Assembly (NCBI GenBank): GCA_028284445.1
Contig: JANQRS010000011.1
Coordinates: forward strand, 128,321 to 192,320
DNA from: Calditrichia bacterium
GTDB taxonomy: Bacteria > Calditrichota > Calditrichia > RBG-13-44-9 > J075
DNA: 64,000 nucleotides
Reading direction: 5' to 3'
Shown here: positions 15,553 to 42,889 of the stretch, one piece after another
How positions within the stretch are numbered: position 1 is the stretch's first letter
Layout: each line of letters begins with the position of its first letter
Position numbers and translations under genes: made by a program
The notes under the pieces: generated by a model
Database searches by the model: none
Told to the model about the DNA's origin: nothing
What the model saw: only the letters and a program-made list of their open reading frames with translations

Positions 15553-16728
15553 ATGATGACGGTGTTGTCAATCCACCATTGGCAAAACAGAGACCTCGCC
15601 TTCAAGGAAATCAATCAAGGAATGACTTATTTGAAACAAATATATGGTTTTCGCTACAGTCATCTCATAATCCTTCTCGTTCTTTTGGCTGTCTCAGCAT
15701 CTGGCCAGGCACCGCGGCATCTTTTCACGCATGCTGAGCCTGAAGCCAGGGGCTTTTCATCGCAAAAGCTAGATTCCCTGGCGGTATTTCTGGAAGGCGC
15801 CGGCTCTTCCGCTATGCTGTTAATGGTGGAGGGTGACATCATCTTTGAGTGGGGCTTTACTGAAACCAAATACATTGTCCATTCAATACGGAAAGCCCTG
15901 CTTAATTCCTTGATCGGCCTGGAAGTCGCAAAAGGTGCGATTGATACCAGCTGGACTATTGGACACCTCAAACTGGATGATGTCAATTCGCCGCTGTCTG
16001 AACGGGAAAAAAGTGCTCGTGTGGCGGATTTACTTAGATCCCGCTCAGGAGTGTATCACCCTGCAGCGGCTGTGTCACAGGGGATGCTCCGTGGGATGCC
16101 GGAGCGAGATAGTTATCTTCCCGGAAAGCATTATTACTACAACAATTGGGACTTTAATGTGCTTGGAGCAATCCTGGAGGAAAAGACCGGCCGGAAAATT
16201 TTCGACTTGTTTAAAGAACAAATTGCTGTTCCGCTTGGCATGCATCACTATACAGGCACCTACACGTCGATCGACGGAGGAGACGAGGATGTCATTACGC
16301 CATCTACTGATGGTGTCTATCAATATGAATTGAGCAAGTCTAAGTATCCGGCCTATCACTTCAGGATGTCCGCGCGAGATTTGGCCCTATATGGCCAGCT
16401 TTACTTGCAGAGGGGTAATTGGAACGGGGAACAGATCATTCCAAAGAAATGGATTGATGTCAGCACTCAACCTTATTCAATCTACAACGAGCGCTATGGA
16501 TTGTCTTATGGAATGCTCTGGTATGTTTTGGTCCCGGATGATAAGCATCAAACACCTTCATTTTATCATACCGGAGCGGGCATCCATATGCTTGGTGTTT
16601 ATCCATCGTCAAAGCTGGTCCTTGTTCACCGGGTGGATACAGAAGGTAAACACATGTTCAAAGAAGAGAGCCTCTACAAAATGATTCGACTGGTCTGGGG
16701 GGCACGCATTAAGGATGGGGTTGAGTAA
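15553..16728 (+). CDS. serine hydrolase (beta-lactamase family)
   Basis: SxxK motif (HSIRK), YNNW-like motif (YYYNNWDFN). A signal-peptide-like segment begins at the alternative ATG 15622. The 15553 start abuts the ATL stop with zero gap. Confidence 0.7.
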   Translation: MMTVLSIHHWQNRDLAFKEINQGMTYLKQIYGFRYSHLIILLVLLAVSASGQAPRHLFTHAEPEARGFSSQKLDSLAVFLEGAGSSAMLLMVEGDIIFEWGFTETKYIVHSIRKALLNSLIGLEVAKGAIDTSWTIGHLKLDDVNSPLSEREKSARVADLLRSRSGVYHPAAAVSQGMLRGMPERDSYLPGKHYYYNNWDFNVLGAILEEKTGRKIFDLFKEQIAVPLGMHHYTGTYTSIDGGDEDVITPSTDGVYQYELSKSKYPAYHFRMSARDLALYGQLYLQRGNWNGEQIIPKKWIDVSTQPYSIYNERYGLSYGMLWYVLVPDDKHQTPSFYHTGAGIHMLGVYPSSKLVLVHRVDTEGKHMFKEESLYKMIRLVWGARIKDGVE

Positions 16729-16731
16729 CAC

Positions 16732-17208
16732 ATGTCCAAAAATCTGTATATGCTCATTGGTCCGAAGGGATCCGGCAAAACATACATTGGTCGTTTGATT
16801 GCAAAGAATTCTTTGGCTGTGTTTGTCGAGGCTGAACGCATTTGGCTCAACTTGCAGGACGGCCAAAGCGGTTGGCAGGCGGTTGAAGAGCAAATTGATC
16901 GAGAATTCAGCGGCAACGACCGCGTTTTTGTGGAAAGTCTGGGTGCCGGTGATGAGTTTCGCGCATTCTACACCTCGCTAAAAGCGAAATATCTCACAAA
17001 GATGATTCGAATTAGCGCAGGCCTTGAAACCTGCCTAAAAAGAGTGCAAGAACGCGGCGCTCGAGATCAATTGCCAATCCCGCTCGGAAAGGTGGCTGAG
17101 TACAATGAAATTGCCGCAGCAGTGGAATTCGATTGGGTACTGGAAATTGATAATGAAGGTCCGGCTGCCGAGGCTGATATATTGGCGGCGATCAAAAAGA
17201 TTATGTAG
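16732..17208 (+). CDS. P-loop NTPase (shikimate/gluconate-kinase-like small kinase)
   Basis: Walker A IGPKGSGKTY. 158 aa. Confidence 0.55.
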   Translation: MSKNLYMLIGPKGSGKTYIGRLIAKNSLAVFVEAERIWLNLQDGQSGWQAVEEQIDREFSGNDRVFVESLGAGDEFRAFYTSLKAKYLTKMIRISAGLETCLKRVQERGARDQLPIPLGKVAEYNEIAAAVEFDWVLEIDNEGPAAEADILAAIKKIM

Positions 17209-27302: not shown

Positions 27303-29162
27303 ATGCTGAAAAAAGATTTAGATAAACTGGATGTTTTCTGCCTGGCCGCTGGAGCGATGATCAGTTCAGGTTTGTTTGTATTGCCTGGCATCGCTTTTGA
27401 GAAGGCCGGTCCCGCTGTCATCCTGGCATATGCGCTGGCGAGCTTGTTTATCATTCCTGCCTTATTGTCCAAGGCTGAACTGGCCACAGCGATGCCCAAA
27501 GCCGGGGGGAGCTATTTCTTCATCGAGCGCAGCCTTGGACCTCTGGTTGGCACCTATGCCGGTTTTCTGAATTGGCTGTCTATTGCCTTGAAGGCCGGGT
27601 TCGCATTAATCGGCATTGGCACAATCGGCGCACAATTCCTGCCTTTTTCCCCTGAATTTGGCATCAAAATCATCGCAATCGGCAGCTGCCTCGTTTTTAC
27701 GTTAGTCAATCTTGTTTCCGTCAAGAGTGTTGGCAATTTGCAGGTCGTTTTGGTCTTTGGACTACTCGGTATCCTGACGCTGCATGGCCTTTCCGGTCTT
27801 GGCAGCCTGGATAGCGCCGCTTACACGCCGTTTATGACGACTGACACCGAGACGCTTTTCGCGGTTGCCGGTATGATCTTTGTATCCTTTGGCGGCTTAA
27901 CCAAGGTTGCCAGCGTTGGCGAGGAAGTCAAAAATCCGGGACGTAATCTTCCACAGGGCATGTTTCTGGCGATGATTGTTGTCAGCATCTTATATATCCT
28001 GGTTGTTGGTGTTGCGGTTGGCACCGTCGAAGCCAGTGAACTTGCTGGTTCACTTACCCCGGTTGCCCTCAGCGCTGAAAAAATATTTGGCACCTGGGGC
28101 ATCATCGCCATAGAGGCAGCGGCGCTTTTTGCCTTCATCACAACTGCCAATGCCGGTGTGCTATCTGCATCGCGATCTCCTTTGGCTATGAGCCGGGATG
28201 GCCTGCTGCCGGAAGGGCTATCGGAAACCAGCAAGCGTTTCCAAACACCACATACCGCCATCTTAATTACCTCCACTTTTATCATTCTGGTTGTCGGACT
28301 GCTATCCATAGAAGACCTCGTGAAAACCGCCTCGACAATGATGATCCTGATGTTCATTCTTGTCAACATCTCTGTGATTGTAATGCGTAGCAGCAAGCTG
28401 CAAAGCTATCGCCCTATTTTTCGTGCACCCTTCTACCCGTGGCTACAGATAGTGTCAGTTGTCTTATACGGCTTCCTGATCTTCGAAATGGGCCTCGTGC
28501 CGCTACTGCTCACTTTTGGCTTTGGACTACTGGCCGGACTCTGGTATGTCGGCTACGTCTGGCGCAAAATTGACCGCGAGTCTGCTTTTGTATATCTCGT
28601 CAAATCGATCACTTCGAGCGACATCGATAGAAGCGGTCTGGAAGATGAGCTCCGGCATATTTCCCTGGAACGAAGCGGCGTTGAGTTGGATCGCTTTGAT
28701 CATCTGGTCAAGGAATGCGAAATTTTGGATATCGAAGAAGAGATTGACGCCAAAGAGCTCTTTCACAAGATGGCCAAAGCATTGGCTGAGCGCCTGGATA
28801 TGGACGAAGAATTCCTCTTCGACTCTTTCCTTAAGCGAGAGAAGCAATCGAGCACCGTCATTAGTCCCGGCTTAGCCATTCCTCATATTATAGTTGATGG
28901 CGAAGATGTGTTTGAGGTAATGCTGGTACGCTGTAAGAAAGGGGCTAACTTTTCCGATCTCAACCAGCCGGTGAAAATGGTCATCGTTCTCTTGGGGTCT
29001 CCGGATCAGCGAAATTATCATCTCCGCGCCTTGATGAATGTTGCCCATCTTGTAAAGAATCCGAAATTCAAGGAAGGCTGGTTAAATGCCCGAAATACGG
29101 AGCAGCTGCGTGATGTTATGCTCCTGTCTCGAAAGCGGGAAAAGAAACCGGAACAGTGGTAA
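27303..29162 (+). CDS. APC-family amino-acid permease fused to C-terminal PTS EIIA type-2 (EIIA-Ntr-like) domain
   Basis: About 420 aa 12-TM APC core (FxxAGAMISSGLFVLPG). About 150 aa C-terminal domain with the EIIA-2 signature (GLAIPH, second His in YHL). Confidence 0.7.
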   Translation: MLKKDLDKLDVFCLAAGAMISSGLFVLPGIAFEKAGPAVILAYALASLFIIPALLSKAELATAMPKAGGSYFFIERSLGPLVGTYAGFLNWLSIALKAGFALIGIGTIGAQFLPFSPEFGIKIIAIGSCLVFTLVNLVSVKSVGNLQVVLVFGLLGILTLHGLSGLGSLDSAAYTPFMTTDTETLFAVAGMIFVSFGGLTKVASVGEEVKNPGRNLPQGMFLAMIVVSILYILVVGVAVGTVEASELAGSLTPVALSAEKIFGTWGIIAIEAAALFAFITTANAGVLSASRSPLAMSRDGLLPEGLSETSKRFQTPHTAILITSTFIILVVGLLSIEDLVKTASTMMILMFILVNISVIVMRSSKLQSYRPIFRAPFYPWLQIVSVVLYGFLIFEMGLVPLLLTFGFGLLAGLWYVGYVWRKIDRESAFVYLVKSITSSDIDRSGLEDELRHISLERSGVELDRFDHLVKECEILDIEEEIDAKELFHKMAKALAERLDMDEEFLFDSFLKREKQSSTVISPGLAIPHIIVDGEDVFEVMLVRCKKGANFSDLNQPVKMVIVLLGSPDQRNYHLRALMNVAHLVKNPKFKEGWLNARNTEQLRDVMLLSRKREKKPEQW

Positions 29163-39216: not shown

Positions 39217-39278
39217 GTGTTTGGCAGCTTCAAACTTGCTGTCTGTCTGTTGGAATTTTTCTTCTTGGAATCTTGCTG

Positions 39279-39551
39279 ATGAACCGTCTGACAATCCTGA
39301 TGATTTTGTCAATCTGCGGCCTATTCATTGGATGCCTGATGATTGCCTATGGCGTATTGTTCGATCCGTTCAGTATTCCGTTCCAGGATTACGATCAAAT
39401 GCCGAAGGAGACCCAGCAAAAGTATGAAGCAGAATCTCGCGCAATGAGTCAATTGGTTCTTGCTGGCCTTTGCGTTACCGGGGCTGCCGGGGCAGGCATG
39501 ATCATTGGGCTCGTGGTCAAATTTGTTGAAAAAAACAAAAATGGGGGATAA
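39279..39551 (+). CDS. small hypothetical membrane protein
   Basis: Two TM helices. ATG 39279. Confidence 0.35.
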   Translation: MNRLTILMILSICGLFIGCLMIAYGVLFDPFSIPFQDYDQMPKETQQKYEAESRAMSQLVLAGLCVTGAAGAGMIIGLVVKFVEKNKNGG

Positions 39552-39578: not shown

Positions 39579-41363
39579 ATGGCATCTCGAAGCATAGGGT
39601 TAATGCCCGCATTCCTTGCTTTTGCTTTCATTACCATTAGTGCGTTCGCCCAGCAGCCTCCCGACTATTTCCATTTCTGGAACGACGGTAAATGGATTTC
39701 CGAAGTCACTATCTACAATCAGGACACTATTCCGGAACAGGATTACTTTCTTGTCAAGAAACTCGAAGGCATGACGGCATTCCGGGAAGAGTGGAAGATC
39801 TTTATTGGCGATGGGGAATATGTGGATGCAACTGTCACTCGCGCGTATGACAAGGCCAGTAAGAAGTGGAGCCTCTATTACGTAGACGATGTCAGCGCCC
39901 AGCATTGGGATAGCAAGCTGCTCGATGATAAAGTCTATTTTTTCAAAACATTTACATTCAAGGGTATGACTTTTTATTCCCGGCAGTCCTGGTCTGTGCT
40001 TCCGAACGGAAAGGTGCTGAGAACGATTGACCGCTCAGAAGATCAAAAAAGCTGGCAGCCTCGATACCGACAGATGTTCAAGCGAGTGGAAGAGAAAAGC
40101 GTCGGTCAGGAGAAGAGCGGCCGCGTGATTGATCGAAGCAAGTATCGTGACCAGCTTTACGGATTCTGGCTGGGCCAGTGTATTGCCAATTGGACCGGGT
40201 TGGTCACAGAGATGGATAAAATCGGCAATATCGGTGATATCCAAACCGGCCCTTTTTATACTCGGGATGATTGGGGGAAGCCGGATCAGCCGAGCATTTG
40301 GGGAGAAGGTCAGCCGAGTGACCTTTCCCCGACGATCGATTTTGTGTTTCGCGATGAAGGAGAAGTTTGGGGCGCAGACGACGATACCGATATTGAGTAT
40401 ATGTATCAGCATCTCCTGTTTACAAATCAGACGTCTTTCCTCGCAGCCACCCAAATTCGGGATGGTTGGATGAAACACATCAAAGCGGAGGAGGAAAACT
40501 ATCTCTGGGTCTCCAATCAAGCGGCTTTCGATCTAATGAAAAGTGGTGCTTTGCCACCGGCAACCAGCGAACCGGGCAGCAATCCCCATTATGACATGAT
40601 TGATGCTCAACTGACCACTGAAATTTTTGGCCTGTATGCGCCCGGCCATCCTGAAGTGGCCTTGAAGATGGCTTATTTACCAATTCGCACAACGGCGCGC
40701 AAGGAGGCTGCTTCTATTTCGGAGTTTTATGTCATTATGTATTCTCTGGCGACGATCGCTGATCCATCGATCTCAATGAAAATGCAAATGATGTCGATGG
40801 CGGAAAACGCTCGCAAACATTTGCCAAATGAATCATACCCGGCCGCAATGTATGATTTCGTCAAGTCAAAATATGATGCTGGTTTACCCTGGGAAGCGAC
40901 CCGGGATGCGATCTACCAACGATATCAAGTGGAGCAGGCTGACGGATACGATATCACCTCCCGTAAGCTCTATTGCAATGGCTGCTTTGCTGCCGGCATC
41001 AATTTCGCCGCCAGCCTGGTCAGCCTTTTCTATGGTGAAGGCAATTTCAGGGAAACGATCAAGATCGGCGTACTTGCCGGATGGGATTCCGACAACCCAA
41101 GCGCCACCTGGGGGGGTATGCTGGGATTCATGTTGGGCAAATACGGCCTGGAAGAAACGTTTGAGCGGACATTCTCGGACAAATTCAATATCCATCGCAC
41201 GCGGCAAAACTTCCCGAATTCGATTGATGATTTCGACAATATGGCGGAGCAAGGTTTGGCGATCGTAGATCGGGTTGTCAGGGAGGAGCTTGGTGGCAGT
41301 CTCGATCTAAAAGAGAATTTATGGCTTATGCCTGACTCGGAGCTAACTAGCCAATTAGAATGA
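39579..41363 (+). CDS. secreted ADP-ribosylglycohydrolase (ARH/DraG) family protein with about 190 aa N-terminal extra domain
   Basis: Signal peptide. ARH-like Gly-rich N-motif (YGFWLGQCIANWTG) and C-terminal metal-site motif (GWDSDNPSATWGGMLG, compare GGDTDT..A..G). Confidence 0.55.
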   Translation: MASRSIGLMPAFLAFAFITISAFAQQPPDYFHFWNDGKWISEVTIYNQDTIPEQDYFLVKKLEGMTAFREEWKIFIGDGEYVDATVTRAYDKASKKWSLYYVDDVSAQHWDSKLLDDKVYFFKTFTFKGMTFYSRQSWSVLPNGKVLRTIDRSEDQKSWQPRYRQMFKRVEEKSVGQEKSGRVIDRSKYRDQLYGFWLGQCIANWTGLVTEMDKIGNIGDIQTGPFYTRDDWGKPDQPSIWGEGQPSDLSPTIDFVFRDEGEVWGADDDTDIEYMYQHLLFTNQTSFLAATQIRDGWMKHIKAEEENYLWVSNQAAFDLMKSGALPPATSEPGSNPHYDMIDAQLTTEIFGLYAPGHPEVALKMAYLPIRTTARKEAASISEFYVIMYSLATIADPSISMKMQMMSMAENARKHLPNESYPAAMYDFVKSKYDAGLPWEATRDAIYQRYQVEQADGYDITSRKLYCNGCFAAGINFAASLVSLFYGEGNFRETIKIGVLAGWDSDNPSATWGGMLGFMLGKYGLEETFERTFSDKFNIHRTRQNFPNSIDDFDNMAEQGLAIVDRVVREELGGSLDLKENLWLMPDSELTSQLE

Positions 41364-41953
41364 AATCTGAAGATATCCCTGTAAACATCGATCAGATCCA
41401 GAGAGTCAACGTCATTGGCACGTCAGGTAGCGGGAAATCGACATTTGCCCGACAACTGGCGCTTATTCTGGATCTGCCATATGTTGAAATGGACGACATT
41501 TATTGGGGACCAAACTGGACCAAGCCGGACGACGATGTCTTCTTTGCAAATTTGGAAAAGGAGATCAATAAAGATCGCTGGGTGTTGGACGGCAATTATT
41601 CGCGCACGACGCCGATAAAATGGCAAGAGGTGCAATTAATTATCTGGCTAGATATGCCCTTTTGGCTGACGCTTTCGCGGGTGACAAAGCGGGCTATTCA
41701 GAGATCTATGAGCCAGGAAGAACTATGGCCTGGCACTGGCAATCGGGAAACGCTACGTAAATCATTTTTGTCACGTGACTCAATTATTCTCTGGTCCATC
41801 ACGAGCTATCGACGGAATCGTCAACGCTATGCCGGTATGATGACTTCACCGAGATACCGCCATCTTCCTTTTTTGCGATTAACGTCGCCACAAGCCGTCG
41901 AACGGTTTCTCGATACCTGCTCTGAAAATATGTTAGTCAAAAGCAAATCATAG
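41360..41953 (+). CDS. adenylate-kinase-like P-loop ATPase (topology-modulation/AAA_33-like)
   Basis: Walker A IGTSGSGKST. Overall FlaR/adenylate-kinase-like pattern. ATGA overlap with the upstream gene. Confidence 0.65.
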   Translation: MKSEDIPVNIDQIQRVNVIGTSGSGKSTFARQLALILDLPYVEMDDIYWGPNWTKPDDDVFFANLEKEINKDRWVLDGNYSRTTPIKWQEVQLIIWLDMPFWLTLSRVTKRAIQRSMSQEELWPGTGNRETLRKSFLSRDSIILWSITSYRRNRQRYAGMMTSPRYRHLPFLRLTSPQAVERFLDTCSENMLVKSKS

Positions 41954-41956
41954 AGC

Positions 41957-42652
41957 GTGAAGGTCGAAACCGAGATGTCTAACATTGGCACCCTTAACGA
42001 GAAGTCGCTGCATATTTCCTTAAAGCAGTGGTATTGCCAGCCGGGCGACCAGCTGGAAGTTCCGGTTGGTCGACATGTGATTGACATTGTTCGCGGGGAT
42101 CAGTTGATTGAAATTCAGACCCGAAATTTCGCTGCAATCAAGCGAAAGCTTTATCAACTTGTTGAAAAACATGAAGTGAGGCTTGTCTACCCCATTGCGG
42201 AGTTGAAATGGGTTATCAAGTTGCCGACCGAAGAAGACGGCGAACCCAGTCGACGTCGGTCGCCAAAACAAGGCAATTTATTGGAGTTGTTTAACGAACT
42301 GGTTAGTTTTCCAGAATTGCTCAATCACAAGAATTTTTCATTACATGTCTTGCTGATTGCAGAAGAGGAAGTGCGTCGATTTACTGGCAAAACCAACTGG
42401 CGGCGTAAGGGATGGGTTACACAGGAGCGAAAAATGTTGTATGTTGTGAATGATGACCATCTCTTTGAAAATGGTTCGGATTTAAGAGCACTCATTCCAC
42501 ATGAGTTTCCGGGAGCTTTTACAGTAGCAGACCTTGTCGAGACCGCTGGTATCTCAAAACGATTAGCAGGAAAAATGGCATACTGCTTGAAGAAGGCTAA
42601 AGCCATAACCGCTCACGGAAAACGTGGGAATGCAATCCTCTATCACATGTAG
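41957..42652 (+). CDS. hypothetical protein (putative restriction-endonuclease-like core + C-terminal wHTH)
   Basis: D...IDIVRGDQLIEIQ strand pair resembling a PD-(D/E)xK-type core. C-terminal helix-turn-helix-like segment. A 3 nt gap separates it from the upstream gene. ATG 41975 is an alternative start. Confidence 0.35.
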   Translation: MKVETEMSNIGTLNEKSLHISLKQWYCQPGDQLEVPVGRHVIDIVRGDQLIEIQTRNFAAIKRKLYQLVEKHEVRLVYPIAELKWVIKLPTEEDGEPSRRRSPKQGNLLELFNELVSFPELLNHKNFSLHVLLIAEEEVRRFTGKTNWRRKGWVTQERKMLYVVNDDHLFENGSDLRALIPHEFPGAFTVADLVETAGISKRLAGKMAYCLKKAKAITAHGKRGNAILYHM

Positions 42653-42668
42653 CGAGGATGATAGGCAT

Positions 42669-42889
42669 CATGACGAATAGTGAATTTAGATTCTCAAAAA
42701 ATATAGCCCATGCCCGTACCATTCCCGCTGAATGGTGCACCAATCCTGCGCGTTTGCAACTTGAGCAGGAGAAAATCTTTAAGCAAAGCTGGCAGAGTGT
42801 TTAGCGAATTAAAGGGTTCAAGGGACGATATTCCGTGAAGCGTGGAAACGGCGTGCGCCACTTTCATGGTCTGTTGGATGAGTTTATGA
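42669..42889 (+). pseudogene. decayed Rieske non-haem iron oxygenase alpha-subunit remnant
   Basis: A 44-codon fragment (IPAEWCTNPARLQLEQEKIFKQSW) matches the N-terminus of Rieske oxygenases. Downstream, in another frame, NGVRHFHG resembles a degenerate C-R-H-R-G Rieske box. Confidence 0.4.

Follow-up and report, generated by a model that had tools for sequence, protein, structure and literature searches.

Three closely packed genes of a Calditrichia bacterium are very probably independent neighbours rather than a conflict module

When three genes of different families lie almost end to end on one strand, do they form a functional system, or do they share a crowded stretch of chromosome? This question is raised by a 64,000-nucleotide stretch from a Calditrichia bacterium (contig JANQRS010000011.1 of assembly GCA_028284445.1; hereafter, the window). 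In it, an open reading frame (ORF) for an exported protein with a core like that of the ADP-ribosylglycohydrolases (ARH; gene 1) is followed by ORFs for a FlaR/adenylate-kinase-like P-loop protein (gene 2) and for a protein of the family DUF8091 (gene 3). The original prediction, made from the letters of the DNA without database searches, took the three to be a co-functional conflict or signalling module. The three + strand ORFs are present at the positions given for them (Table 1); the module is not borne out. In all likelihood, the genes are three independently distributed neighbours in a dense co-directional run of accessory genes and not a functional system, because they do not co-occur elsewhere, a search with PADLOC is negative, and dense packing between unrelated genes is routine in this DNA.

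The first of these arguments comes from two surveys of related loci. Among 80 species-representative genome loci whose ARH core is 66-74% identical to that of gene 1, tblastn detected gene 2, gene 3 or the N-terminal domain of gene 1 within 6 kb in none (0/80). For DUF8091, 84 metagenomic and genomic loci were surveyed together with 4 more; an ARH gene is found in none of these 88, and no neighbour is conserved. Conservation of the gene neighbourhood was the original prediction's own refutation test, and across about 170 loci the genes do not co-occur. In addition, PADLOC (PADLOC-DB 2.0) gave no matches for genes 1 and 3 and nothing beyond P-loop noise for gene 2 (E 0.006). A defence or conflict system was rejected on this negative result.

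The tight spacing of the three genes is not above chance in this window. Nearly every gene-like ORF of at least 150 aa is on the + strand (about 57 genes), and these genes encode a mixture of accessory enzymes, transporters and repeat proteins; no tRNA or rRNA genes and no Rfam matches were found in the 64 kb. At 56 consecutive + strand junctions, the spacing is 25 nt or less in 20 cases and 5 nt or less in 12, and the genes overlap in 8. Many of the partners belong to unrelated families. For instance, a VWA gene and a cNMP-binding gene overlap by 4 nt, as do a PhzF gene and a cupin gene by 8 nt, while 0 nt separate LysE from TPR and 13 nt separate an isochorismatase gene from an ECF sigma gene. 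Similarly, a beta-lactamase-family gene (15553-16728) is followed after 3 nt by a kinase-like AAA_33 gene (16732-17208) of an unrelated family, and an alpha/beta-hydrolase gene abuts, at 0 nt, a gene for an AA_permease_2 amino-acid permease with a C-terminal PTS EIIA-2 domain (27303-29162). Overlaps of 1-4 nt with unrelated neighbours are also seen for DUF8091 genes at other loci.

These results bear directly on the possibility of a lineage-specific three-gene operon, in which an exported ARH enzyme would act in conflict or signalling with a cytoplasmic kinase and a nuclease/winged helix-turn-helix (wHTH) effector. Such an operon would account for the 4-nt overlap, the short gap and the shared strand, and conflict systems repeatedly feature ARH, P-loop and PD-(D/E)xK domains. 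Nevertheless, it is highly improbable: the counts in both surveys, the PADLOC search and the local norm of packing unrelated genes tightly all speak against it, as does the placement of its products in different compartments. Furthermore, no ADP-ribosyltransferase (ART) or other toxin domain was found by Pfam in the adjacent ORFs scanned.

The junctions themselves required some correction. The ATGA overlap of 4 nt between genes 1 and 2 is present as predicted, and a Shine-Dalgarno (SD) sequence, GAGGAG, lies 6 nt upstream of the start of gene 1. By contrast, the 3-nt gap described between genes 2 and 3 depends on a GTG start at 41957 that lacks an SD site. A better fit is the ATG at 41975, which is preceded by AAGG, opens a reading frame beginning MSNIGTLNEK, as is typical of homolog N-termini, and agrees with the public gene call of 225 aa; thus, gene 3 most likely starts there and the gap is most likely one of 21 nt. 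Scans for promoters and terminators were uninformative, with a yield at or below shuffle expectation. The GC content of the three genes, overall and at third codon positions (GC3), falls inside the window's spread, and a signal of horizontal transfer was rejected on these values.

Several points weigh against the view that the three genes are independent. The ATGA overlap and the 21-nt gap imply co-transcription, possibly with translational coupling, and the genes are probably co-transcribed in this organism. A FlaR-like gene adjoins DUF8091 in 2 of the about 60 loci that have enough upstream flank, slightly above the chance expectation estimated by the author. The co-occurrence survey was anchored on ARH and DUF8091 loci and not on the neighbourhoods of gene 2, and the genomes surveyed include none of the genus or family to which the window belongs; the window's contig itself is absent from the species-representative collection. 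Since no close relative is among these genomes, a young lineage-specific operon is still conceivable.

The adjacency of FlaR-like and DUF8091 genes also suggests a narrower alternative, in which genes 2 and 3 alone would pair as a FlaR-like kinase and a DUF8091 nuclease, with gene 1 as a bystander. The window would then be a further instance of what is seen in loci L105 and L147, the only two of the 88 DUF8091 loci where a FlaR-like gene is immediately adjacent (at 48 and 71 bp). However, these two loci are related to each other (75% identity between the DUF8091 proteins and 53% between the kinases) and are therefore counted as one event. Their genes are divergent, whereas those of the window are co-directional, and their kinases are 33-37% identical to gene 2. 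Moreover, the genes flanking DUF8091 are in the great majority of cases different ones that vary between loci, and small P-loop kinases are common in this genome, with a second at 16732-17208. A pairing of this kind is, on balance, quite improbable, and the placement of all three genes as independent neighbours is preferred.

Table 1. Features of the locus (positions are those of the window)
Feature	Position	Strand	Remarks
Gene 1	39579..41363	+	594 aa; exported: signal peptide, predicted beta-barrel and putative ARH-fold hydrolase
Gene 1, predicted Sec-type signal peptide	39579..39653	+	Residues 1-25; cleavage between AFA and QQ
Gene 1, N-terminal domain, predicted nitrobindin/calycin-like 10-11-stranded beta-barrel	39654..40094	+	Residues ~26-172
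Gene 1, ARH-superfamily core	40137..41363	+	Residues ~187-594
Gene 2, FlaR/adenylate-kinase-like P-loop NTPase, cytoplasmic	41360..41953	+	197 aa
Gene 3, DUF8091 (PF26351)	41975..42652	+	225 aa; 231 aa if read from GTG 41957
44-codon ORF, Rieske label unconfirmed, outside any module	42670..42804	+	Translation MTNSEFRFSKNIAHARTIPAEWCTNPARLQLEQEKIFKQSWQSV*

If the genes are unrelated in function, each has to be considered by itself. Gene 1 has a match to the Pfam family PF03747 (ADP_ribosyl_GH) over residues 195-524, with 85.6 bits (E 6e-24) against a cutoff of 26.2 bits, and covers model positions 1-284 of 287; the ARH-like core that had been proposed is thus confirmed. The signal peptide is likewise upheld by a lone hydrophobic N-terminal segment (residues 6-24, Kyte-Doolittle (KD) value 2.09) that precedes the AFA-QQ site. 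No other hydrophobic 19-mer exceeds 1.6 KD apart from those starting at residues 5-7. The leader is modelled as a helix of low pLDDT (residues 11-21), and the QQ at residues 25-26 is invariant in free-standing homologs of the N-terminal domain, which have leaders of their own. A protein identical to gene 1 was found in a public collection.

From about residue 170 to its end at 594, gene 1 shares 66-74% identity with a very large group of proteins of about 450 aa (80 genomes examined), which come from Bacteroidota, Gemmatimonadota, Neomarinimicrobiota, Balneolaceae, KSB1 and Lentisphaeria. In these homologs, the place of the N-terminal domain is taken by a lipoprotein-type leader with a conserved lipobox Cys. 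The subfamily, about 70% identical across several phyla, is strongly conserved and uncharacterised; its usual form, in Bacteroidota and allied phyla, is that of a stand-alone lipoprotein.

Gene 1 contains both GQCIANWTGL and GWDSDNPSATWGG. The second of these includes the C-terminal D-x-D motif, which is intact, as had been noted. Throughout the ARH subfamily, GQCIANWTGLVTE, DDDTD and GWDSDN are invariant, and so are E211, D268-D269-T270-D271 and D503-x-D505-N506 (23 subfamily members). By their motifs, E211, D268/D269/T270 and D503/D505/N506 are presumed to correspond to metal ligands of DraG and ARH3. In the first Gly-rich motif, the original prediction had correctly read N/T at the position where an acidic ligand is usual; since this reading is invariant across the whole subfamily, it is a subfamily trait and not a sign of decay. 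The alignment to DraG/ARH3 by which the catalytic residues were to be scored could not be made, as no solved ARH structure was reached by phmmer or by a 23-sequence profile, even at E<=10. For this reason, the catalytic residues were judged by motif only.

Taken together, these features make gene 1 most probably a metal-dependent glycohydrolase of the ARH superfamily that works outside the cytoplasm. It may take a ribosyl or glycosyl group off an extracytoplasmic substrate, either a small molecule or something linked to the envelope, and would not act on ADP-ribosylated cytoplasmic proteins. Such a substrate is suggested because the subfamily is exported or lipid-anchored throughout, because there is no partner transferase, because the occasional neighbours are sugar-active enzymes, and because ARH-family genes have been reported in Bacteroidetes ribose-utilisation (rus) loci, which serve nutrient scavenging (10.1101/574913). 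The commonest neighbour of ARH genes is a GH3-like gene directly upstream on the same strand (10 of the 80 loci, L005-L084), and Gfo/Idh/MocA-like and beta-lactamase-like genes occur nearby in 9/80 and 7/80, respectively; these family names come from reading representative sequences and not from a Pfam scan. The GH3-like (beta-glucosidase) and beta-lactamase-like neighbours are, in themselves, weak hints of glycoside or small-molecule catabolism.

A different role for gene 1 would be that of a DraG- or Tri1-like reversal or immunity enzyme that strips ADP-ribose from toxin-modified proteins. Membership in PF03747 and the invariance of DDDTD and DSDN agree with such a role, but it is very unlikely, given that gene 1 is exported, its relatives are lipoproteins, and no ART gene adjoins it. 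Furthermore, the neighbours in the 80 genomes are sugar or hydrolase genes or show nothing conserved, the subfamily is too divergent to reach any solved ARH by sequence, and a link to ribose scavenging has been drawn for exported ARH-family enzymes of Bacteroidetes (10.1101/574913). It is even conceivable, though doubtful, that the exported ARH-fold lipoproteins form a new class of glycohydrolases that work outside the cytoplasm on substrates other than proteins, in which case the barrel of gene 1, a fusion seen only here, would point to a hydrophobic aglycone; a two-gene nuclease system of a FlaR-like kinase and DUF8091 is less likely than this.

The additional N-terminal domain of gene 1 had been recognised in the original prediction as an extension of no known type. 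The domain is real, and it can now be given a predicted type: structure predictions were made for it and for gene 3, and its model forms a 10-stranded antiparallel barrel that is nitrobindin-like (calycin). It has no Pfam match. When 1.84 billion representatives were scanned in full with HMMER, relatives of the barrel were limited to 73 clusters. The closest (P0251) is 63% identical, shares the domain end ...RVEE and is fused to a beta-lactamase-family serine hydrolase, while in further relatives the partner is a SnoaL, DUF4440 or lumazine-binding-like domain. Wherever the extra domain of a fused relative was identified, it is not an ARH domain, and three longer relatives (P0275, P0268 and P0300) have no Pfam match. 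Because of the 73 clusters and the varied fusion partners, the barrel seems to be a rare and portable, or promiscuous, N-terminal module for secreted hydrolases, and its combination with an ARH core appears peculiar to this genome. A Rosetta-stone link between barrel and ARH was considered and rejected, as genes for free-standing barrels do not adjoin ARH genes, the ARH loci lack the barrel, and other fusion partners are found elsewhere.

The barrel in place of a lipoprotein leader, on a conserved exported family of presumed ARH fold, is the one mildly new item of this locus. The leader has here been replaced by a complete secreted barrel that is predicted to be nitrobindin-like. It may bind a hydrophobic ligand or moiety, or it may tether the enzyme and thereby substitute for the lost lipid anchor.

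For gene 2, the description as a cytoplasmic adenylate-kinase/FlaR-like P-loop protein holds. Its best NCBIfam match is NF005994 (PRK08118, FlaR) over residues 14-187 (E 1.4e-25), it has a Walker A motif, GTSGSGKST, at residues 20-28, and neither it nor gene 3 contains a hydrophobic segment. Weak Pfam matches to SKI, AAA_18 and AAA_33 are centred on Walker A. The NF005994 score of 90.3 bits is far below the equivalog cutoff of 215 bits, and gene 2 is therefore a relative of the FlaR family and not FlaR itself. It would be a cytoplasmic nucleotide kinase-like enzyme with a housekeeping or accessory role. The other small P-loop kinase-like gene of the window, at 16732-17208, has a weak AAA_33 match and is dissimilar to gene 2.

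Gene 3 belongs to DUF8091, a family common in Chloroflexota, and is a stand-alone protein. All 120 homologs listed carry a precomputed PF26351 assignment, and among the matches listed, E values go down to 1e-81 with 54-62% identity. The predicted PD-(D/E)xK-like core and wHTH tail both stood up. The model contains a restriction-endonuclease-like alpha-beta-beta-beta-alpha-beta core with the motif D43...E52-I-Q54, and a C-terminal winged helix, with a bundle of three helices (H173-179, H190-197 and H201-213) and a beta-hairpin wing (E218-223 and E226-230), that matches ArsR, MarR and SmtB. Weak matches to HTH_Crp_2 and to a SelB wing occur in 5/28 and 4/28 DUF8091 members, respectively. Residues E15, D43, E52, Q54 and K64 are invariant, with K64 in the helix that follows. 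The canonical catalytic signature D...(D/E)-x-K is absent, since Gln takes the place of the canonical Lys in 28/28 aligned members, and nuclease activity is therefore uncertain. There is no significant match to any nuclease Pfam family, nor, with Foldseek, to any PDB entry. From its model, gene 3 may be a DNA-binding and possibly nucleolytic protein of the PD-(D/E)xK type.

No paper mentioning DUF8091 was found in the literature. A phage origin was also considered and rejected, as none of the pattern matches among viral contigs encodes a DUF8091 relative. In a Dehalococcoidales metagenome-assembled genome (L003 1-6702; CP070842.1), genes for a phage portal and a major capsid protein are found some 3-6 kb away from DUF8091. 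In another locus (L170 3468-4690; GCA_041918175.1, JAYRWE010000091.1), an HTH_3 gene and a DUF433 gene are followed by DUF8091, which overlaps DUF433 by 4 nt; this trio sits between paaA/C-like genes and paaB, like a cassette inserted into a phenylacetate operon. DUF433 proteins often act as antitoxin-like partners.

On either side of the three genes, short ORFs are found. Upstream, a 92-aa ORF (39273-39551), perhaps not a real gene, with two hydrophobic segments and no significant Pfam match ends 27 nt before gene 1. Downstream, an otherwise unassigned 237-nt spacer between gene 3 and an isochorismatase-family gene holds the 44-codon ORF, which had been read as a decayed Rieske oxygenase remnant and, in consequence, as a sign that the spot had been remodelled. 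Its sequence presumably looks like the N-terminal part of a Rieske oxygenase alpha subunit. For the ORF and its extension by read-through (42670-42889) alike, Pfam gives no match at E<=10 and no Rieske protein appears among the PDB matches, which for the ORF are non-significant sulfurtransferases only. This is a weak test, as the fragment is N-terminal of the start of the Pfam Rieske domain. The remnant is thus unconfirmed by Pfam or PDB and has no bearing on the verdict on the three genes, and the remodelling deduced from it is without tool support.

In general terms, this is a negative result with a practical side: in dense genomes with most genes on the same strand, short overlaps and gaps alone are no evidence of a module. 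As a candidate for a new conflict system, the trio can be set aside. Two minor leads are retained, namely a conserved, exported and uncharacterised subfamily of presumed ARH fold, here with a nitrobindin-like barrel, and DUF8091, a large (more than 5000 loci) and well-conserved predicted nuclease-fold/wHTH family from Chloroflexota without known function.

How do the three proteins compare with systems that have been described? Gene 1 resembles the PF03747 family (DraG, ARH1/ARH3, Tri1) over nearly the full model. Presumably, two acidic motifs, (S/T/D)DDT-like and D-x-D-(T/N), are shared as well, together with a Glu that follows N204 by seven residues, if the correspondence is as assumed here. 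Gene 1 differs in being exported, with lipoproteins as relatives, in a first motif that reads A-N-W and not G-D-A in its subfamily, in lacking a partner ADP-ribosyltransferase, and in the N-terminal barrel fused to its core. From gene 1, sequence searches, including one with a profile, do not reach the solved members of PF03747. Among published contexts, that of the ARH genes of rus loci comes closest to the relatives of gene 1, and nothing on exported ARH enzymes was found in the literature beyond that preprint (10.1101/574913). By contrast, the 80 ARH loci are not like rus loci or polysaccharide utilisation loci (PULs).

Gene 2 resembles the FlaR "DNA topology modulation protein" (PRK08118) over its whole length and in its Walker A motif, but scores less than half of the bits set for equivalogs. 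Gene 3 differs from PD-(D/E)xK nucleases such as SfsA, YaeQ, NucS, CdiA-CT and BglII by the Gln in place of the canonical Lys. Finally, the barrel of gene 1 is 7-13% identical to those of nitrobindin, the THAP4 C-terminal domain, Rv2717c and OlmO and stands apart from them in having no Pfam match; in contrast to nitrobindin-type barrels, the type found in gene 1 is secreted and occurs either fused to various hydrolases or free from them.

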